64,000 nucleotides of DNA, taken from positions 1-64,000 of the IMG/VR virus record IMGVR_UViG_3300028531_000001. The stretch is one strand, 5' to 3'. The DNA comes from a virus. Lineage: Duplodnaviria; Caudoviricetes. The position numbers and the translations under genes are program-made. Position 1 is the stretch's first letter. Each line of letters opens with the position of its first letter. A model generated the notes under the pieces. That model was not told the DNA's origin. It saw only the letters and a list, made by a program, of their open reading frames with translations, and did no database searches. Shown here in pieces: positions 22,115 through 40,076 of this stretch.

Positions 22115-22660
22115 ATGGGTCACCCCCTGCTCGCGGGCGAGGTGAGGCCGCGGCCACACTCGGACCTGCCGCTGAGGCCGACGGTGCGTTGGATGACCGC
22201 CGAGCACATCCGGGCGGCGGCGGAGATCGACTTCGCGGGCACGCCCTGGGACTGGACGGGGCCCCGCATGGCCGAGTTCCTGGCCCGACGCGGCTGCATG
22301 GGCCGGGTGGCCGAATCGGCCGGCTCGGCGGTCGGGTTCGCGTTGTACGAGGCGAGACGGCCGACGATCGAGGTGCACAAGCTGGTCGTGGACGCCGAAT
22401 ACCGCGGCCTGGGCGTCGGGGAGGCGTTGGTCCGGGCCCTCGCGGCGAAGCTCGACGGGGCGACCTGGGGGCGGCTGCTGATCAACGTGCGCGAGACCAA
22501 CCTGGACGGGCAGCTGTTCCTGCGCGAGCAGGGATTCCTGGGGCGGCGGGTGATCCGGGGCCACTTCCCCGACTCGGGCGAGGACGCGTTCGAGATGGTG
22601 CTGACGGCCGACCGGGCGAGGCTGGCCCGGCCGGGGTTCCTGGGGCGGAGGCCCGCATGA
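22115..22660 (+). CDS. GNAT acetyltransferase, RimI-like
   Basis: 'VDAEYRGLGVGEAL' motif A, 'VRETNLDGQLFL...GF', 'GEDAFEM'; SD GAGGTGA. Confidence 0.8.
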   Translation: MGHPLLAGEVRPRPHSDLPLRPTVRWMTAEHIRAAAEIDFAGTPWDWTGPRMAEFLARRGCMGRVAESAGSAVGFALYEARRPTIEVHKLVVDAEYRGLGVGEALVRALAAKLDGATWGRLLINVRETNLDGQLFLREQGFLGRRVIRGHFPDSGEDAFEMVLTADRARLARPGFLGRRPA

Positions 22661-23490
22661 GGCAGTATCTCGACCTCCTGCGGCACGTCATGGACCACGG
22701 CGAGGACCAGCCGTCGCGTTCCGTCCTGGCCAGCACGGGCGAGCGGCCGTCCACGCGGAGCGTCTTCGGCCATCAGTGCCGCCACGACCTACGCGACGGC
22801 TTCCCGATCGTCACGACGAAGTACGTCCCGTTCCGCCAGGTCGCCGCGGAGCTGGCGTGGTTCCTGAGCGGATCGACCAACGTCGCCCCGCTCCACGAAT
22901 CGGGCGTCCGCATCTGGGACGCCTGGGCGACGGAGGGCGGCGACCTCGGGCCCATCTACGGCGCGTTGTGGCGGAACTGGCAGGGCCGGGGCGGGCGTGT
23001 CGACCAGATCGCGGAACTGGCGGCGGGAATCCGGGCGGTGGCCGACGACCCGCACGACTCGCGGGCGAGGCGGCTGGTCCTCACGTCCTGGGACCCGTCG
23101 GCCATGCGGCAGGTCAAAGGCCCGTCGGGATGCCACACGCTCTGCCAGTTCTACGTCAGCAAAGGCCGGCTGTCCTGCCACCTCTACCAGCGGTCGGCGG
23201 ACCTGTTCCTGGGCGTCCCCTGGAACATCGCGTGCTACGCCCTGCTGACGCACCTGATGGCGAGCCTCTCGGGGCTCGAGCCGTTCGAGTTCATCCACTC
23301 GTTCGGCGACGCCCACATCTACGCGAACCACCTCGATCAGGTGGCCGAGCAACTCACGCGCGACCCCCTGCCCTTGCCGACGCTGAAGATCGACTCCCGC
23401 TTCGGCTCGATCGACCGGTTCGACCCGTCGTGGGTCTCACTCGATAGTTATGCGTCCCATCCCAGGCTCTCGGGCGAGGTGGCTATATGA
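22657..23490 (+). CDS. thyA: Thymidylate synthase
   Basis: MRQYLDLL, LGPIYG, catalytic GCH, YQRSADLFLGVPWNI, GDAHIY. Confidence 0.95.
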   Translation: MRQYLDLLRHVMDHGEDQPSRSVLASTGERPSTRSVFGHQCRHDLRDGFPIVTTKYVPFRQVAAELAWFLSGSTNVAPLHESGVRIWDAWATEGGDLGPIYGALWRNWQGRGGRVDQIAELAAGIRAVADDPHDSRARRLVLTSWDPSAMRQVKGPSGCHTLCQFYVSKGRLSCHLYQRSADLFLGVPWNIACYALLTHLMASLSGLEPFEFIHSFGDAHIYANHLDQVAEQLTRDPLPLPTLKIDSRFGSIDRFDPSWVSLDSYASHPRLSGEVAI

Positions 23491-24029
23491 TCGTCTGCGC
23501 GATCGTGGCGATGGACCGCAACGGACTGATCGGGGCCGGCGGGAAGCTCCCCTGGCACCTGCCGGGCGACTTGAAGCGGTTCCGGGCCCTGACGATGGGC
23601 TGCCCGGTCATCATGGGCCGGAAGACGTTCTGCTCGCTCGGGAAGCCGCTGGATGGCCGGGAGAACATCGTCCTGTCGCGGTCGGGACCGAAGATCGGCA
23701 AGGGCTTCCGGGTCTCCCCGTCGATCGAAGACGCGATCGGCTACCACGAATATTGGGGTACGCCTCGTGTCTGGATCATCGGCGGGGCCGAGGTCTACGC
23801 GGCAACCTGCCACCTGTGGGACGAACTGGCGATCACGAGCGTCGCTGGAGACTACGCGGGGGACGCCCACTTCCCGCTAGACGCGGTCGACGCGATCGGC
23901 TGGAAGCTCGTGAAGCACGCCGGCTTCGTTGTCGGCGGCTTGCCCTTCCACACGGCGAGCAAGTTCCGCCGGATCGAGCCGGGCGAGGCCCCCGTCTCGA
24001 TCAACCCCGCCATCCCGCTCGGATCTTGA
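23487..24029 (+). CDS. folA: Dihydrofolate reductase
   Basis: IG..GKLPWHLPGDLKRFRALT, IMGRKTF, WIIGGAEVY. Confidence 0.95.
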   Translation: MIVCAIVAMDRNGLIGAGGKLPWHLPGDLKRFRALTMGCPVIMGRKTFCSLGKPLDGRENIVLSRSGPKIGKGFRVSPSIEDAIGYHEYWGTPRVWIIGGAEVYAATCHLWDELAITSVAGDYAGDAHFPLDAVDAIGWKLVKHAGFVVGGLPFHTASKFRRIEPGEAPVSINPAIPLGS

Positions 24030-30265: not shown

Positions 30266-30343
30266 GGCCGAGTCGACTCCAGACGCCAGCGACCAACCGC
30301 CGATCCTCTCTAATGCCCCAATGACGGGGCAGGGGAGGATCGC

Positions 30344-31135
30344 ATGCGTTCGATCGTGCTGCTGAATCAGAAGGGCGGGGTCGGCAAGACCTCGACCTGC
30401 CACCATCTCGCGGGGACGCTGGCCAAGCGGGGCCGGCGCGTCCTCTGCCTGGACGTCGATCCCCAGGCCAGCCTGACGCAGGGCTTCTTCGGGCCCGAGT
30501 GGACCCGGTCGCTCGACCCGTCGCGGTCGATCGCGGCGTACTACACCGAGGAAGGATTCGACCCGTCGATCCCGATGGCGGTCGAGACGCCGGTGCAGGG
30601 GGTCTCCATCATCCCCGGCTCGGCCCGCCTGAACTCGTTCAACCTGCCGGACCCCGAGGGCGACCACCGGCAGTTCGTCCTGCGCGAGGCCCTGGCGGAC
30701 CTGGAAGGCCAGTACGACGACGTGCTGATCGACTGCCCGCCCAATCTCTGCTTGTGCTCGTGGTCGGCCCTGGCGGCGGCGGACGGGGTCATCGTTCCGC
30801 TCCAGGCCGAGGACTACGGCGCGCAAGGGATTTTCGCGATCACCGGCGCGATCGAGGCCGCCCGCCAGCAGGTCAACGCCTCGCTGGAGCTCTACGGCTT
30901 CCTGATCACGATGTACAACAAGGCCCTGTCGATCCACGTCGCCTACGCGAGCCAGCTCCGCGACCTCTACGGGGCGAAGGTCTTCGCCACCGAGATCCCG
31001 CTGGCCAAGGACTTCAAGGAGGCCGTCGCCAGCCGCCTGCCGATCTCGCACTACAAGCCGAAGTCCGCACCGGCCAGGACGCTGGCAGCCCTGGCCGCGG
31101 AGCTCGACGCGCTGACCATGACGGAGGCCGCGTGA
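30344..31135 (+). CDS. parA: ParA family partition ATPase
   Basis: Deviant Walker A KGGVGKTS, DVDPQASLT, LIDCPP. Confidence 0.95.
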   Translation: MRSIVLLNQKGGVGKTSTCHHLAGTLAKRGRRVLCLDVDPQASLTQGFFGPEWTRSLDPSRSIAAYYTEEGFDPSIPMAVETPVQGVSIIPGSARLNSFNLPDPEGDHRQFVLREALADLEGQYDDVLIDCPPNLCLCSWSALAAADGVIVPLQAEDYGAQGIFAITGAIEAARQQVNASLELYGFLITMYNKALSIHVAYASQLRDLYGAKVFATEIPLAKDFKEAVASRLPISHYKPKSAPARTLAALAAELDALTMTEAA

Positions 31136-32040
31136 TGGCGAAGGGTGCCGACATGCTCCGCGCGAAATTCGGCGCGAACATGGCCGAGTCGATGGCCGCC
31201 AGCACGACCGCCCACGCCCCGCACATCATGCCGGGGGCCGGGTCCGCCCAGGAGAAGCAGGAGGGGACCAAGGCCCTCCGCGACGGGAAATTGATCGAGC
31301 TCCGGAAGATCATGCCCGACCCCGACCAGCCGCGCAAGGCGTTCGAGCCCGAGGAACTCGAGCGGCTCTCGTCGTCGATCCGGGACAGGGGGGTGCTCCA
31401 GCCGATCCGCGTCCGCTGGTCGGACGAGCACAGGATGTGGGTCATCATCGCGGGCGAGCGGAGGTATCGGGCCGCACGGATCGCGGGCCTGTCCGAGCTG
31501 CCGTGCGTGACGGTCCACGCCGAGCAGGACGCGGGCGAACTCCTGATCGACCAGCTGATCGAGAACTGCCTCCGCGAGGACCTCCAGCCGATCGAGCAGG
31601 CCAACGCGTTCAAGGCCCTCATGGACCGCAACGACTGGCCGGCCTCGCGCCTGGCGATCGAGTTGAACCTTTCGAACTCGATGGTCAGCCGGGCCCTGGC
31701 GCTCCTGAAGCTCGCCCCGGAACTCCAGGCGCAGGTGGACGCGGGCGAGTTGCCGGCATCGACCGCCGTGCAGATCGCGAGGGTCGAGGACCCCGCCGCC
31801 CAGGTCGAGCTCGCCGAACGGTCCAGGACCGAGAGCGTCAAGGCGATCAAGGCCGAGGTCGCGAGCGAGGCACCCAGGGGCAGGGGGCGCGTGGCCACCC
31901 GCATCACGATTTCCAGGGCATACGGCCAATCGACCCTAACCTACGCAGGTCCGGTGGGGGCATCTCGCCAGGAAGCGATCGAGGCCGCGAAGAAGTTCCT
32001 GAAGGACCTGGCGAAGGACCCGAAGCTGTCGGACGGCTGA
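31135..32040 (+). CDS. parB: ParB family partition protein
   Basis: PDPDQPRKAF, IAGERRYRAA CTP-binding motif, REDLQPIEQA, HTH. Confidence 0.95.
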   Translation: MAKGADMLRAKFGANMAESMAASTTAHAPHIMPGAGSAQEKQEGTKALRDGKLIELRKIMPDPDQPRKAFEPEELERLSSSIRDRGVLQPIRVRWSDEHRMWVIIAGERRYRAARIAGLSELPCVTVHAEQDAGELLIDQLIENCLREDLQPIEQANAFKALMDRNDWPASRLAIELNLSNSMVSRALALLKLAPELQAQVDAGELPASTAVQIARVEDPAAQVELAERSRTESVKAIKAEVASEAPRGRGRVATRITISRAYGQSTLTYAGPVGASRQEAIEAAKKFLKDLAKDPKLSDG

Positions 32041-34319: not shown

Positions 34320-34703
34320 ATGAAAGCCTGCTGCTTCTGCCAAGGACCGCTGCACCCCGATCCCGGCTTCGGGGTTTGCGAGGAATGCTCGGGGTCCATC
34401 CGCAAAGAGATGGTCTTCGAGGGCGATGAACCGAGCGAGCACGAGGACGAGCCGAAGGTCTGCGAGTGCAACGCCACCATCGATGAGGTGAACGTCGCCA
34501 AGCGATGCGGCTGCTGCAAATCTGAAGGATGCAGTGTGTGCCTGCCCCAAGGGGAGTGCGAGGAGTGTTTTGTCGAGAACGCTCAGGAGAGGGCTAAAGA
34601 GGAATACGAGAGTGACAAGTGGTCGATGAAGCGTGTCCTGGAAAAGAGACGGGCTTCGGTCCAACTCAAGCACCAAGAAGAACTGCAAAACGCCTTCAAA
34701 TAA
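34320..34703 (+). CDS. Cys-rich metal-binding protein
   Basis: 14 Cys in 127 aa (CCxC, CxxC, CxC, CxCC); SD GGAGG. Confidence 0.6.
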   Translation: MKACCFCQGPLHPDPGFGVCEECSGSIRKEMVFEGDEPSEHEDEPKVCECNATIDEVNVAKRCGCCKSEGCSVCLPQGECEECFVENAQERAKEEYESDKWSMKRVLEKRRASVQLKHQEELQNAFK

Positions 34704-34731
34704 TCATCCCCAACTGAGAAGGACACCATCC

Positions 34732-35868
34732 GTGGCGACCGCGACCGAAAGCCTGACCTTCCGCTGCAACCGGGCTCTGCTCCAGAGGGCCTTCGCCGAG
34801 ATCGTCGGCGTCGCCCCGTCGCGCAGCCCCAAGCCGATCCTCCAGAACATCAAGATGGCCGTCGGCCCCGATGGCGCATCCCTGATCGCGACCGACCTCG
34901 AAGTGGCGATCACCCGCGAGGTCTCGGGCGTGACGTCCGACCGGCCGGCGAGCCTGATCCTGCCCGCGGCGAAGGTCGGCCAGATCCTCCGGGCCAGCTC
35001 CGACGACGACCTGACGATCGACCTGGAAGACGGCAACCTGACGATCCGAGGGGCCCGGAGCAAATTCACGCTCCCCTCGAGCGACCCGGCCGAGTTCCCC
35101 GAGCCGCCCGCGTTCGACTCCGAAGACTTCGCCTCGATCCCGGCGGCGGACCTACGCCGGCTGATCCGGCGGACGACGTTTGCCACCGACGTCGAGAGCA
35201 CCCGATACGCACTGGGCGGGGTGCTGTTCGAGTTCGGCGACGGGACGCTGGCGGGGGTCGGGACCGACGGCCGGAGGCTGGCACGCGTCGTCGTCCCGTG
35301 CGAGGGGCAGGGGGGATTCACGCCGCCCGGGAAGGCCCCGGTCATCCCCACGAAGTGCCTGAACCTGCTCCTGAAGTCCCTGGAAGACACCGACCCGCCC
35401 GTGCACGTCCGCGTCGACGCCGACCGGTCGGTGATGTTCCGCACGCACAACGCGACCATCTACAGCCGCCTCGTCGAAGGCCGCTTCCCCCGCTACCAGG
35501 ACGTCTTCCCGGCCGAGGCGACCGCCGTCATCCCGGTCGGCGTCGGGCCGCTCCTGGCCGCCACGCAGCAGGCCATGATCGTCACCAGCGAGGAAAGCCG
35601 GGGCGTCGATTTCCGCTTCGACTGCGGCATGCTCTCGCTGTCCAGCCAGGCCCCCGATGCGGGGAGTTCGACGGTGGACCTGCCGATCGACTACGACGGC
35701 CAGGCGATCGAGATCACGTTCGACCCGCGGTATCTGATCGACGCGCTGAAGGTTTTGGATGAATCCGCGAATATCTCGGTCGAGCTGATCGACCACAAGA
35801 ACGCGGCCGTCTTCAGGACCGAGGACGATTACACCTATGTCGTCATGCCGCTGACGTCGCGGCGTTAG
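34732..35868 (+). CDS. dnaN: DNA polymerase III beta sliding clamp
   Basis: 'PKPILQNI..ATDLEV..STRYALGGV..GTDGRRLA..SRLVEGRFPRY..FDPRYLIDAL..YVVMPL'. Confidence 0.95.
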   Translation: MATATESLTFRCNRALLQRAFAEIVGVAPSRSPKPILQNIKMAVGPDGASLIATDLEVAITREVSGVTSDRPASLILPAAKVGQILRASSDDDLTIDLEDGNLTIRGARSKFTLPSSDPAEFPEPPAFDSEDFASIPAADLRRLIRRTTFATDVESTRYALGGVLFEFGDGTLAGVGTDGRRLARVVVPCEGQGGFTPPGKAPVIPTKCLNLLLKSLEDTDPPVHVRVDADRSVMFRTHNATIYSRLVEGRFPRYQDVFPAEATAVIPVGVGPLLAATQQAMIVTSEESRGVDFRFDCGMLSLSSQAPDAGSSTVDLPIDYDGQAIEITFDPRYLIDALKVLDESANISVELIDHKNAAVFRTEDDYTYVVMPLTSRR

Positions 35869-35876
35869 GAGGGGCC

Positions 35877-36065
35877 GTGGCATACATGCGTTGGGCGGAA
35901 GTGGCCGAGACGGCGGCCGTGCTGGGCGCCGTAATCGTCGGGATACCCGCCATCTGCGGGTGGGTCGGGTACAGGTGGGGGAAGCGGGCGAGGCCGGGCC
36001 CGGAGCGTGAGCCATTCGGGGGTGAGCAGACGTTCGAGATGCCTGGATCTGAGGGGAGGGACTGA
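35877..36065 (+). CDS. Small membrane protein
   Basis: One TM plus basic tail; SD GGAGG. Confidence 0.5.
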   Translation: MAYMRWAEVAETAAVLGAVIVGIPAICGWVGYRWGKRARPGPEREPFGGEQTFEMPGSEGRD

Positions 36066-36307
36066 TGGCGACCGAGACGACGGGGCTGGAGTGGGAGGAA
36101 ACGCAGATCGACGGCAAGTCGTTCTGGGTGACCGAGTCTGGCGAGTTGGGACTGTCGATCGGAGTTTCCGGCAATGAGTATGTGTGGGAGATGTGGTGCT
36201 TTTGCTGCAACAACAAGCTCGACGACGGCTCTGAACCCACCCTCGAAGCCGCCAAGGCCGCCGTTGAGCGGATCGTGGGGCAGGACCAGCCGGGAGGTGC
36301 CGGATGA
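36065..36307 (+). CDS. Hypothetical phage protein
   Basis: 'GLEWEE...TLEAAKAAVE' motif. Confidence 0.6.
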   Translation: MATETTGLEWEETQIDGKSFWVTESGELGLSIGVSGNEYVWEMWCFCCNNKLDDGSEPTLEAAKAAVERIVGQDQPGGAG

Positions 36308-36870
36308 GCGACGAGACTGCGGCGGCGATTCCTGATGAACTGTGGGGGCTGCGATGGAAGGGCAAGGAGAGCCAATGGCTTTCTGAGGGCGACTGGGATA
36401 TCGCAGCCTGCGTATCGAGAGAGGCGACTCAATCGGATGCGTTCTGGAGCAAACCGCAGCACCGGGACTTATGGGAGCCCGTCCTCATCGGCGTGAGCCC
36501 CGCCATCCGCGACGAGCGTGACGCACTGCGGGCGGAGAACGAGAAACTGAGGTCGGCCGCTATCAACATGGCTCGGGCGGCGGGGAATGAGTCCGAGAAG
36601 TGCGATCACTGGATTGCCGAGCATATCAGGTTGGCCGATCGCATCGCGGAACTAGAAGCCGAGCTTGCCACGCTGCGGGGCGAGGGGCCGCTACGGGTCG
36701 GGGATGTGGTGCAGATGCTGTCCCCAGACGGGATGCGGTGCATGTTCATCGTCGAGCCGAGCAACATTGCTCCAGGCGGGTTCATCCAGCAGTCCCTGCA
36801 TTTGGGAGCCCAGATCCATCGCATCGGCCGAGCAGTCCGCATGCCCGATGGGACGCCCGTGGACCAGTGA
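36304..36870 (+). CDS. Modular coiled-coil phage protein, paralog of 42381..43112
   Basis: Shared DNA blocks; SD GGAGG. Confidence 0.6.
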   Translation: MSDETAAAIPDELWGLRWKGKESQWLSEGDWDIAACVSREATQSDAFWSKPQHRDLWEPVLIGVSPAIRDERDALRAENEKLRSAAINMARAAGNESEKCDHWIAEHIRLADRIAELEAELATLRGEGPLRVGDVVQMLSPDGMRCMFIVEPSNIAPGGFIQQSLHLGAQIHRIGRAVRMPDGTPVDQ

Positions 36871-36899
36871 CCCAGGCCAGCAGGGGAGGTGGGGGATCT

Positions 36900-37595
36900 A
36901 TGCGAGTCTACCTGGCCAGTCCGAATACGCAACAACAGGCTGAGCACGCCTGCGACATGCCGGTCCTGCTGTCGTTCGGCTGCTGGTCGGACTGGATGGA
37001 CCGCTACCAGGCGACGTTCTCGCGGTTGTTGATCGATTCGGGAGCTTACAGCGAGTTGAACTCAGGTAAGAAAATCGATCTCGATGCCTACATGGATTGG
37101 GCCGGTCGGTGGGTCGGGCACGCCGACGCGATCGCGGGGCTGGACGACATCTCGGGCGACTGGCGGCGGTCGCTGGCCAACTACGAGCGGTTCGTTTTGG
37201 GCTTCCCGACGTATCACGACACGGACCCGCCCGAACTCCTCGACGACCTGATCGAGATCGCCCGCGAGCGTGGACGCTGGATCGGCCTGGGCGTCAAGCC
37301 GCCGCGAGAGGGCAAGGAGCGATGGATCCGAGACGCATGCGAGCGAATTCCCGAGGACTTCCACATCCACGGCTGGGCGCTCAGGCGATACACGCACGTC
37401 AGGCGGATGGACTCGGCCGATAGCACTAACTGGTGGCGGGACGCGATGAAACTCCGCGTTACAAGCGGGCTGGAACACCTGACCTACGGCGAGTGCCTCG
37501 GAATCGTCGTCAAGCGATATCAGCGGTGGGAGAGGACGATCAAAGAGCCCGCAAAGCAGCCGAGCCTGTGGGATTCGCTGGAGGTGGCCTTGTGA
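36900..37595 (+). CDS. TGT-superfamily transglycosylase, DpdA-like
   Basis: LLIDSGAYS, LDDI, FPTYH, IHGWA and DSADSTNW motifs; coupled to queE. Confidence 0.7.
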   Translation: MRVYLASPNTQQQAEHACDMPVLLSFGCWSDWMDRYQATFSRLLIDSGAYSELNSGKKIDLDAYMDWAGRWVGHADAIAGLDDISGDWRRSLANYERFVLGFPTYHDTDPPELLDDLIEIARERGRWIGLGVKPPREGKERWIRDACERIPEDFHIHGWALRRYTHVRRMDSADSTNWWRDAMKLRVTSGLEHLTYGECLGIVVKRYQRWERTIKEPAKQPSLWDSLEVAL

Positions 37596-38206
37596 AGACT
37601 TACGCGGTCAAGGAGATCTTCTACTCGATCCAAGGCGAGGGGGCCAAGGCGGGCCAGCCTGCGGTCTTCGTCCGCCTCAGCGGCTGCAACCTCTGGTCGG
37701 GCCGCGAGGAAGACCGGGCCACAGCAGCCTGCCGGTTCTGCGACACCAACTTCTCGGGCGGCGCCAAGTTGACCGCCGAACAGATCGCCGACCAGGCCCG
37801 GTCGCTCTGGCCCAACGAGACTCCGGGCTGGTGCGTCCTGACGGGCGGTGAACCGGCCTTGCAGGTCGATCGGGAGTTGGTGGCGGCACTCCGGGCAAGG
37901 GGATTCCGGGACGCGATCGAGACCAACGGGACCGTGCCGCTCGGCCTCCGCCATGACTGGGTCACGCTCAGCCCGAAGGCCGGGACGACGATCGAGCAAA
38001 CCTACTGCGATGAACTCAAGGTCGTCTACCCGCAGGAGGGATTGGACCTCGAAGACCTGGGCTCGATCGCCACGACGCGGCGGTATCTCCAGCCGATGGA
38101 CGGGCCGGACCTCGATCGAAACCGGGCGTCGGCGGCGGCGTACTGCCTGGCCCATCCCGAATGGGCGTTGAGCCTTCAGATTCACAAGATCCTGGGGGTG
38201 GCCTGA
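37592..38206 (+). CDS. queE: 7-carboxy-7-deazaguanine synthase (radical SAM, CX14CX2C type)
   Basis: KEIFYSIQGEG, CNLWSGREEDRATAACRFCDT, TGGEP, IETNGT, SPK, QIHK. Confidence 0.92.
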   Translation: MKTYAVKEIFYSIQGEGAKAGQPAVFVRLSGCNLWSGREEDRATAACRFCDTNFSGGAKLTAEQIADQARSLWPNETPGWCVLTGGEPALQVDRELVAALRARGFRDAIETNGTVPLGLRHDWVTLSPKAGTTIEQTYCDELKVVYPQEGLDLEDLGSIATTRRYLQPMDGPDLDRNRASAAAYCLAHPEWALSLQIHKILGVA

Positions 38207-38697
38207 TGCCCCGCCTCAAGCTGACCCCCGAGCAGCGGGCCGCGATCGCAGCGGCCCCGAAGCCGCCGACGATCGAAACGCTGGGGCTGGGCGAGCCGAA
38301 GCCCCGCAAGCCACGCCGGTCGATGCTGGGCACGCTGGGCGGTCCGGGCCCGTGGCGGATCGTGATCGAGGGGTGGCACCCGGAAGGGACCGTCAACAAC
38401 CTGATCGGCAAGTCAATCGGACACATCACCGGGCTCAAGCGGAAGGACGAGGCGACGCTGTTCGCACACCTGCTGGGCGTGGTCCCGGCGGCGACGGGGC
38501 GGAGGCGGCTCCGGGTGACGCTGGTGTATCCGAAGGGGCGGAAGTCCCACGACGCGGACAACCCGGAGAAGTCGATACGGGACGGGCTGGTCCGAATCGG
38601 GGCGTTGGTGGACGACTCGCGTGAGTGGCTGGACTCGGCCGAGTCCCAGGCGGCGGTGGGCGGCAAGGCGACGATTCTTGAGATGGAGGATTGCTGA
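38206..38697 (+). CDS. RusA-like Holliday junction resolvase
   Basis: 'HDADNPEKSIRDGL...LVDDS'. Confidence 0.7.
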   Translation: MPRLKLTPEQRAAIAAAPKPPTIETLGLGEPKPRKPRRSMLGTLGGPGPWRIVIEGWHPEGTVNNLIGKSIGHITGLKRKDEATLFAHLLGVVPAATGRRRLRVTLVYPKGRKSHDADNPEKSIRDGLVRIGALVDDSREWLDSAESQAAVGGKATILEMEDC

Positions 38698-38975
38698 TGT
38701 CGGAGGTTGCTGCCCGAATGCCGGTAGAGGTGAACCTGGCCGGGATCATGCACGATGTTCGTGAGTCCGAGGGGCTGATCGTGTTCGTTCAGCAAGATCC
38801 GTTCGGCCCGATCCGGTCGCGGTTCTCATTCCGCCGAGAATGCCAGTGCTGGTACGTCTCGATCGAAGGGACCGAAGATTCGGTCAGCGTGACGCACATT
38901 GCCCGAGCGTATGAGGAAATCTGCAAGGTGTTCGGCGGAAACTTTGAAGGCAGGAATGGAGAGCACAACCCATGA
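38697..38975 (+). CDS. Hypothetical protein
   Basis: 92 aa, coupled. Confidence 0.5.
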   Translation: MSEVAARMPVEVNLAGIMHDVRESEGLIVFVQQDPFGPIRSRFSFRRECQCWYVSIEGTEDSVSVTHIARAYEEICKVFGGNFEGRNGEHNP

Positions 38976-39223
38976 GGCGACTTTCTGACATGAGCGGCGA
39001 AGAAAGAGCCGCATACCTCAATATGCTGTGTGCCGCGACCCAGGCTGTCGTCCCGCCCGGGGTCACGCTGGTGATTGGACTGTTGGATGAGGACAAGTCG
39101 CGAGGCCACTGGGTCGGAAACGGAGAGTATCCGGACATGGCCCGGCTTGCGGCCGAGATTGCCTCGGACATCGAGCGGGATAGTAAGAGCGGCAGCAACC
39201 AGTTTCCGCCCTCCGAGAACTAG
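38972..39223 (+). CDS. Hypothetical protein
   Basis: 83 aa, ATGA-coupled. Confidence 0.55.
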   Translation: MRRLSDMSGEERAAYLNMLCAATQAVVPPGVTLVIGLLDEDKSRGHWVGNGEYPDMARLAAEIASDIERDSKSGSNQFPPSEN

Positions 39224-39304
39224 CCTGGATGCCGTGACCGCTGCCTGCGGGCTGGCCCTGGTGGTGGACGACGTGGCGACGCTGGTGGGCGCACTGGAGG
39301 GGAT

Positions 39305-39587
39305 ATGAGAGAGCGGCGAGAGTTCAGCGAAGGCGAATGGGATTCTGAGTTCGACGGCGACGGCTATCTCATCAACGGGATCATCCGTGTCCCGATGACC
39401 TACGATGAGTATCCAGCCGACGCCAAACTGATCACGGCGGCCCCCCGACCTGTATCGAGCCTGCGAGGCCGCACTGGCGAAACTGGACTACATTCGCGGC
39501 GTCTGGGGCGACGAGGGCGTGACTCGATCAGTCGCGGATCAACTTCGCTCGGCTGTCGAAAAGGCTACCTTGATTGAGACCGACTAA
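39305..39587 (+). pseudogene. Frameshifted small phage protein (+1 C in a C6 tract)
   Basis: Removing one C at 39441-39446 restores 'DAKLITAAPDLYRACEAALAKL' and a stop at 39585-39587. Confidence 0.65.
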
Positions 39588-39629
39588 CACCACCGCCCGC
39601 GTGGCGGCCGACGAGGGAGGCGGGGCGAG

Positions 39630-40076
39630 ATGGCAGAGCAAGAAATGGATGCGATGACGAGAGCGGGCAAGCAAATGGCCTCTTGCTTCGGCGGTGGGTA
39701 CGTCGTGGGTGACGACGAACGCATTGCCCGGCAGGCCGCCGAACGCCGGGCCGAGGCTGCGGAGGCGAGGCTGGCGGAGTTGATCGCGGCAGCGAAGGTG
39801 GCGTTCGACGCGATGAATGACGCCTACTACGGGATCAGCCGAAGCCTCGACTATGAGAAGGTGGCCGGCTTCGAGGCAGCCATTGCCAAGGCCGAGCGTG
39901 AGCCCGCCACGCCGCCGGCGGATGCGGCCGGGGCGGAGGGAGGGGAAGTCTGCGAACAGATCACGCCTGACGACTTTGATGGCATGATCGACGTCGCAAA
40001 CGACCCGGAGTCGGCTGTCGGAAGGCTCAGGACTGAGACCCGAAGGATTCCGATGCGAGAGGACACCGACCAATGA
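39630..40076 (+). CDS. Hypothetical coiled-coil phage protein
   Basis: 'RAEAAEARLAEL...FEAAIAKAE'. Confidence 0.6.
   Translation: MAEQEMDAMTRAGKQMASCFGGGYVVGDDERIARQAAERRAEAAEARLAELIAAAKVAFDAMNDAYYGISRSLDYEKVAGFEAAIAKAEREPATPPADAAGAEGGEVCEQITPDDFDGMIDVANDPESAVGRLRTETRRIPMREDTDQ

Follow-up and report, generated by a model that had tools for sequence, protein, structure and literature searches.

Positions 36,900 to 38,206 of a 64,000-nucleotide viral sequence (the window, meaning the whole stretch that was analysed) contain two overlapping genes, one encoding a short DpdA-like protein (P0001) and the other the 7-carboxy-7-deazaguanine (CDG) synthase QueE (P0002). The window covers the initial 64 kb of an IMG/VR record of 76,864 bp (IMGVR_UViG_3300028531_000001; Duplodnaviria, Caudoviricetes) that is linear and has no end repeats. 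We consider it fairly probable that the pair constitutes a two-gene 7-deazaguanine DNA-modification module, in which a host-completed base of the 7-cyano-7-deazaguanine (preQ0) type would be swapped into phage DNA, with QueE raising the flux towards it. The strongest functional evidence is the repeated, independent linkage of this kind of DpdA gene to genes for 7-deazaguanine synthesis and anti-restriction.

A short DpdA-like protein and its predicted catalytic residues

The two genes lie on the same strand, each preceded by a GGAGG motif:

36885..36889, + strand: Shine-Dalgarno-like GGAGG, 10 nt 5' of the DpdA-like start (from sequence)
36900..37595, + strand: DpdA-like gene P0001, predicted short DNA 7-deazaguanine transglycosylase, 231 aa (from the open reading frame, homology and an AlphaFold2 model)
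37035-37037, + strand: codon of predicted catalytic D46 (from the joint alignment)
37419-37421, + strand: codon of predicted catalytic D174 (from the joint alignment)
37580..37584, + strand: GGAGG inside the 3' end of the DpdA gene, 7 nt 5' of the QueE GTG (from sequence)
37592..38206, + strand: QueE P0002, 7-carboxy-7-deazaguanine synthase of the Cx14CxxC type, 204 aa, GTG start (from homology)

An initial annotation, made by a model from the letters of the DNA, had described a 231-aa protein of the tRNA-guanine transglycosylase (TGT) fold, with the motifs DSGAYS, HGW and DSADSTNW, overlapping a CX14CX2C QueE. The open reading frames, the three motifs (residues 46-51, 157-159 and 171-178) and the GTGA overlap were confirmed, and the identification of P0001 as DpdA-like was borne out by profile comparison. 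P0001 matched no Pfam family at E-values up to 1, the TGT family PF01702 included, and ten longer, remote relatives searched against Pfam likewise gave no family. It did match phrog_887 (E 2.8e-12, 47 bits), a family that scores 227-336 bits on the DpdA proteins of Salmonella phage SE1 (9g-like), Pseudomonas phage PaMx25, Streptococcus phage Dp-1 and Mycobacterium phage Bipper, and the gap between P0001 and DpdA1 on this profile was bridged by intermediate relatives scoring 100-129 bits. DpdA genes of Cluster-B-type mycobacteriophages fall in phrog_7068, not phrog_887. Judged by its 47-bit score, P0001 would stand at the far edge of DpdA1. Direct comparison with DpdA of Streptococcus phage Dp-1 gave E 5e-14 by BLASTP and E 2e-7 by tblastn, and a profile of 46 sequences of the P0001 family aligned with the same protein at 99.5% in hhalign (E 2e-22), the match ending at residue 223 of 311. 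Against E. coli Tgt the family profile reached a probability of 11%, with only the DSGGFQ motif aligned.

Sequence-level searches of the PDB with P0001, a 20-sequence profile and the 46-sequence profile returned no TGT and no DpdA, and Dp-1 DpdA used as a query likewise returned none; solved structures were therefore reachable by fold comparison only. The AlphaFold2 model of P0001 (pLDDT 82, pTM 0.75) contains eight strand-helix units, corresponding to a (beta/alpha)8 barrel. Because Foldseek on the PDB alone gave E-values like those of TGT to unrelated TIM barrels (tryptophan synthase alpha, dehydroquinase), its candidates had to be re-aligned with VIA-align. After re-alignment the top 50 PDB entries were all members of the TGT family (Z 13.0-14.0, root-mean-square deviation (rmsd) 3.1-4.0, about 208 of 231 residues), headed by Cap10 (9ntn, Z 14.0), Thermotoga TGT (13.8), human QTRT1 (13.7) and archaeal TGT (13.6). 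In a viral structure library, the named matches to the model were actinophage 'queuine tRNA-ribosyltransferases'.

P0001, six DpdA1 proteins and E. coli Tgt were then placed in a joint MAFFT alignment. Here D46 (DSGAYS) fell on Tgt D89 (DSGGFQ) and D174 (ADSTNW) on Tgt D264 (FDCV), while D82 (LDD), H106 (PTYH) and H157-G158 fell on the DpdA1 motifs LD.IGD, P.FH and HGFG. Among 46 divergent relatives G48, H157 and D174 were invariant, and D46, S47, D82, H106, G131 and G158 were conserved in at least 90%. The conserved histidine of the H106 column is absent from DpdA2. These alignments suggest that the catalytic aspartate pair (D46, D174) and the base-recognition residues D82 and H106 are kept in P0001; the protein also groups with phage DpdA and not with tRNA TGTs. 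P0001 ends about 55 residues past the nucleophile aspartate, and its 231 aa compare with 303-357 aa in the six DpdA1 references.

A distinct sequence is found in the loop after barrel strand 6 of P0001, GLGVKPPREGK, where P134, P135 and R136 (window positions 37302-37313 encode residues 134-137) are invariant or nearly so in 20 close homologues. At this point the sequence of DpdA1 proteins is a Gly-rich LGG. In TGTs, it is through this loop that the 7-substituent of the base is read.

At 90% identity the homologues of P0001 fell into over 1,000 clusters, with lengths of about 220-245 aa and none containing a Pfam domain, and an exhaustive profile search gave 1,448 representatives at E-values up to 0.001. 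The branch is seen almost only in metagenomes, with hardly any relatives in the cultured-phage records searched. One distant relative, P0268 (556 aa), is fused at its C-terminus to a Mom-like domain (PF25680, E 9.5e-5; its 22.6 bits fall short of the cut-off of 27.1); if true, this fusion would place two different DNA-modification enzymes in one protein.

QueE and the gene companions of short DpdA

At the level of homology, the identity of P0002 as a bona fide Cx14CxxC QueE is settled. The NCBIfam equivalog TIGR04508 (queE_Cx14CxxC) scored 256.7 bits against a cut-off of 240 and covered model positions 1-207 of 208. Residues 3-203 aligned with Burkholderia multivorans QueE (4NJG, E 6e-61) with coincident cysteine-motif columns, the cluster cysteines being C32-x14-C47-x2-C50 (encoded at 37685-37741). 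Many cellular QueE proteins are 55-60% identical to P0002. The TGA stop of the DpdA gene (37593-37595) overlaps the QueE GTG start at 37592 (GTGA), and from this arrangement the two genes are predicted to be translationally coupled. At the other end of QueE, the sequence TGATG (38204-38208) lets the stop codon share one base with a possible ATG of the RusA-like gene that follows; DpdA, QueE and the RusA-like gene may thus be a chain of translationally coupled genes.

To place this pair among its relatives, 97 related loci (88 of them non-redundant) were collected and searched with que proteins. At 21 of the loci each flank was 3 kb or longer, and the genes found there beside DpdA were:

QueE only: 10/21
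No que gene: 5/21
QueD and QueE: 2/21
QueC and QueE: 1/21
QueC, QueE and gene X: 1/21
Gene X only: 1/21
QueD only: 1/21

QueE alone is therefore the commonest layout in this branch. A locus with shorter flanks (L051) had the order QueC-QueE-QueD-DpdA. Across the 88 non-redundant loci all que companions lay within 1.1 kb of DpdA, in differing gene orders. No FolE was found in the relatives, the metagenome loci being covered by tblastn with Dp-1 proteins, a weak search, and only 15 viral records at Pfam level.

The QueE companions were of two unrelated types. The canonical Cx14CxxC type lay downstream of DpdA in all 11 loci that had it, while a divergent type, which scored below every equivalog cut-off, lay upstream in 24 of 29. 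Because 11 loci, with duplicates removed, have a short DpdA followed by a Cx14CxxC QueE, the pairing of the two genes is more than chance. DpdA and QueE aside, the flanking genes of the window cassette had no counterpart in the related viral loci, and the lack of common flanking genes indicates that the module moves between unrelated phages.

Gene X, which recurs beside short DpdA with or without QueE and QueC, was located as follows:

L005:9082-9408: gene X, 108 aa
L007:9047-9373: gene X, 108 aa
L006, L043, L050, L056, L057 and L073: gene X also present

It has 78 homologues, with invariant Cys28-Glu29 and His93, and gave no Pfam or NCBIfam match; it was not found in the record of this phage. 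Its structural model is a single T-fold (pLDDT 92) that best matched the archaeosine synthase QueF-Like (QueF-L; 5jyx, Z 12.1, rmsd 1.9, 97 of 105 residues, 21% identity), followed by GTP cyclohydrolase I (Z 11.8, rmsd about 3).

Further genes were observed beside short DpdA at individual loci. In a provirus, the short DpdA gene is immediately followed by an ISL3-family transposase (L003:10691-12013, the same DNA as L026, contig JAESGS010000108.1; PF01610, E 3e-57) and may there be carried as cargo by an insertion element. Upstream of short DpdA, a Lar-like restriction-alleviation gene (PF14354) occupies L001:9356-9979, and downstream of it, at L007:11054-13282, a protein of 742 aa that includes a C5 cytosine methylase domain is encoded; these two neighbourhoods look like small anti-restriction islands.

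The inserted base and alternative explanations

The initial annotation had reported no folE, queD or queC in the window, and this was found to hold for the whole 76,864-bp record: Pfam-level six-frame searches detected no QueC, QueD/PTPS, FolE, QueF or YhhQ. No decarboxylase or amidotransferase candidate was found in the record either. A relative with a complete genome (G001; 69,197 bp, direct terminal repeats, 100% complete) carries DpdA (22311-22973) and QueE (23003-23626), and no QueC, QueD or FolE was found in it. As this complete genome has the same pair alone, the DpdA and QueE-only set is real and not a contig artefact.

On the reading that we favour, FolE, QueD and QueC would come from the host, and the phage would add the committed, slow radical S-adenosylmethionine (SAM) step to supply flux during DNA synthesis. 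By homology, QueE would convert host-made 6-carboxytetrahydropterin (CPH4) to CDG, which host QueC would turn into preQ0. The short DpdA would be a TIM-barrel transglycosylase with D46 as general acid/base and D174 as nucleophile. By homology, it would act through the double displacement established for TGT and bacterial DpdA, removing guanine from double-stranded phage DNA after replication and inserting the 7-deazaguanine base. The modified DNA would be expected to resist restriction, as in phages 9g and CAjan. As a radical-SAM enzyme, QueE could plausibly be the bottleneck, each genome copy offering tens of thousands of guanines for exchange.

The initial annotation had offered two alternatives, host precursors with QueE as the boosted step or insertion of CDG or another derivative, and the former is the better supported of the two. 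DpdA proteins 66-73% identical to P0001 adjoin QueC or a QueF-L-like T-fold gene, and the QueC of L005 passes the equivalog TIGR00364. QueF-type enzymes attack the nitrile of preQ0. The presence of these companions in such close relatives argues that P0001, too, more probably uses preQ0 or a base derived from preQ0. In a DpdA tree the rows nearest to P0001 include L020 (QueE only) and L033 (QueC and QueE), and the accessory sets are interspersed over the tree, with a poorly resolved backbone, and do not divide it.

The MAG (metagenome-assembled genome) that holds the DpdA-only relative L017 contains a queD-queE-queC operon and tgt, which fits supply by the host, binning being weak evidence of such a link. 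An apparent QueC of MAG G017 was discarded as a host gene: it shares a short contig (C457) with the QueE-like match, and this arrangement matches the DpdA-QueC-QueE contig L018, so that the gene is probably the phage contig's own.

Several points weigh against the reading that we favour. QueC is the least often carried of the gene set, and QueD with QueE but without QueC in some relatives fits a CDG endpoint as well as it fits flux boosting. The host FolE, QueD and QueC are assumed, and a rate-limiting QueE is our own proposal, not the result of a tool. In addition, P0001 lacks some 80-130 C-terminal residues of DpdA1 proteins, and the zinc-binding CxCxxC...H subdomain was not found in it (of its four cysteines only C199 is conserved); together with the low phrog_887 score, these absences mean that activity and DNA specificity could differ.

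The same gene content might instead belong to a module that stops at CDG, the short DpdA inserting CDG or a derivative of it and QueE being the only dedicated enzyme beyond host FolE and QueD. This would agree with the lack of QueC in both the record and its complete relative, with the predominance of QueE-only loci and with the QueD-QueE loci just mentioned. There are precedents in the deoxynucleoside of CDG (dCDG) of Sulfolobus virus STSV-2, in DpdA3 phages that stop at CDG and in VH7D DpdA2, which in a queC mutant inserts CDG, although with low efficiency (PMC10516641), as well as in phage Bipper, which lacks only QueC (PMC6884629). Speculatively, the family-specific arginine of PPR, invariant in the 20 close homologues, could bind the carboxylate. 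We nevertheless regard a CDG endpoint as unlikely: close relatives of P0001 sit beside an equivalog-passing QueC or a QueF-L-like gene that needs the preQ0 nitrile, the scatter of accessory sets over the DpdA tree argues for one substrate, and a host that provides CPH4 through QueD normally also has QueE and QueC. It is rather doubtful that CDG itself, perhaps passed on by the coupled QueE, is the substrate of the short, zinc-less DpdA branch, so that dCDG or a new derivative is written into DNA with one dedicated biosynthetic enzyme; if true, dCDG, of unexplained origin in STSV-2, would for the first time have a defined genetic route.

Two other explanations concern the extent of the cassette and its target. 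CheckV estimates the record to be only 83% complete, which counts against our reading and, with the linear form and missing end repeats, would allow QueC, QueD and FolE to lie on the absent 17% or so of the genome, the cassette then not being minimal. This is very unlikely, since every que gene in the non-redundant loci lies within 1.1 kb of DpdA, both flanks of the window cassette can be read for more than 25 kb without a further que gene, and the complete relative has the pair only. It is likewise highly improbable that the pair acts on RNA or protein, either by boosting queuosine in tRNA or by a Cap10-like handling of 7-deazaguanine-modified proteins, for example against type IV CBASS or Qat. 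Cap10, which also lacks the zinc site, is indeed the top individual match by structure, but it is tied with tRNA TGTs. P0001 has neither the tRNA-binding zinc nor the C-terminal subdomain and does not match PF01702, its sequence homology is to DpdA1 and not to Cap10, and the catalytic aspartate pair appears to be kept. Moreover, DpdA of phage 9g fails to complement a tgt mutant (PMC6884629), no QueC-like Cap9 partner is on the record, and the linked QueE, QueC and QueD imply a need for base synthesis that fits stoichiometric modification of DNA. Host-completed modification of phage DNA by a preQ0-type base is the explanation that we prefer.

Genomic setting and comparison with known systems

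The cassette lies within a co-directional replication/recombination block of about 9 kb (approximately 33.1-41.8 kb) that also contains an ArsR-like helix-turn-helix gene and has a terminator-like hairpin on either side, at 32.8 and 42.0 kb. The neighbouring features are:

30314-31135: ParA-like gene
31294-31566: gene with a ParB N-terminal domain, after the ParA-like gene and about 5 kb upstream of the cassette
34633..35868, + strand: DnaN-like sliding clamp (phrog_947), given as the longest open reading frame; the true start is probably later
38206..38697, + strand: RusA-like resolvase immediately 3' of QueE, start 38161 or 38206

The clamp gene and the resolvase gene are both inside the block. 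In phages SE1 and PaMx25 DpdA and the clamp gene are neighbours, and in Dp-1 two short genes separate them. The neighbouring genes at 36065-36870 and 38691-40076 had no Pfam or PHROG match and are not conserved beside DpdA in relatives; they were not counted as parts of the cassette. Farther away are genes for a RecE-like exonuclease and a ribonucleotide reductase. The element looks like a phage with plasmid-type partition functions, and because the record carries a ParA gene paired with a ParB N-terminal domain, the description 'temperate plasmid-like', a plasmid-type prophage, is plausible.

The phage host is probably a planctomycete. The only organism name shown among P0001 homologues was that of a Gemmataceae MAG, and a scan of genome contigs found only two MAG contigs. 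A search for the phage pilin in 81 genomes of the phylum of MAG G017 gave no match.

Modification of DNA with 7-deazaguanines is a major phage counter-defence, and its published subfamilies (bDpdA and DpdA1-DpdA4) come almost entirely from cultured phages. The system described here is of a known kind with an ordinary mechanism, and its moderate interest lies in the breadth of the branch and the minimal enzyme. As the smallest form of DpdA seen in this analysis, P0001 offers a minimal enzyme for structural and mechanistic work, and the shifting que subset, mostly QueE alone, constitutes a natural experiment on the limiting steps of phage DNA modification. The branch also leads one to expect modified DNA in phages that infect planctomycetes and other soil and freshwater bacteria, where it would affect sequencing, restriction-based methods and the inference of host range.

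Four classes of phage have been distinguished, with DpdA and the G+ pathway, DpdA and the preQ0 pathway, DpdA only, and the pathway without DpdA (Hutinet et al. 2019, PMC6884629), and the subfamilies DpdA3 and DpdA4 were added later (Cui et al. 2023, PMC10516641). No description of a DpdA branch of about 230 aa, or of a layout of DpdA with QueE only, was found in these two papers or in a non-exhaustive full-text search.

Cap10 of type IV CBASS (PDB 9NTN; bioRxiv 10.1101/2025.04.06.647259) shares with P0001 a zinc-less TGT fold and is its top structural match (Z 14.0); however, the partners of Cap10 are a deazaguanylated CD-NTase, to which it binds, and the QueC-like Cap9. No similarity between P0001 and Cap10 was found at the sequence level, and no Cap9-like (QueC-family) gene was found in the record, where CD-NTase was not searched for. 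In bacterial DpdA, Asp95 is the general acid/base and Asp256 the nucleophile, while reading of the base falls to Asp130 and His181 (PMC10164549). The mechanism proposed for P0001 is the same as that of Salmonella Montevideo DpdA/DpdB (PDB 7UI4; PMC10164549), with an acid/base aspartate, a nucleophile aspartate and an aspartate and histidine for base recognition. The bacterial enzyme, in contrast, needs the DpdB ATPase and sits in a restriction-modification island, whereas P0001 has no DpdB-like partner beside it, the sole ParB-like gene belonging to the parAB pair upstream.

Among phage systems, the DpdA1 phages, Enterobacteria phage 9g, Escherichia phage CAjan and Streptococcus phage Dp-1 (PMC6884629), have in common with this cassette the phrog_887 family, the Asp/His motifs, a clamp gene nearby and a link to the preQ0 pathway. 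They differ in having a DpdA of about 300-360 aa, compared with 231 aa and 47 bits on phrog_887 here, and in encoding FolE-QueD-QueE-QueC, with or without an amidotransferase, where this phage has QueE alone. In Bipper and in the DpdA3 phages Campylobacter CP220 and Cellulophaga phiST (PMC10516641), phage-encoded synthesis likewise ends at QueE, that is at CDG, but these phages also encode FolE and QueD, phiST adds DpdL, and DpdA3 is a different subfamily. The 'DpdA-only' phages that form the third published group (PMC6884629) take their base from the host or the environment, as would this phage, and the well-flanked relatives include five DpdA-only loci; the cassette differs from them in that one biosynthetic gene, QueE, has been kept and is apparently coupled in translation to DpdA.

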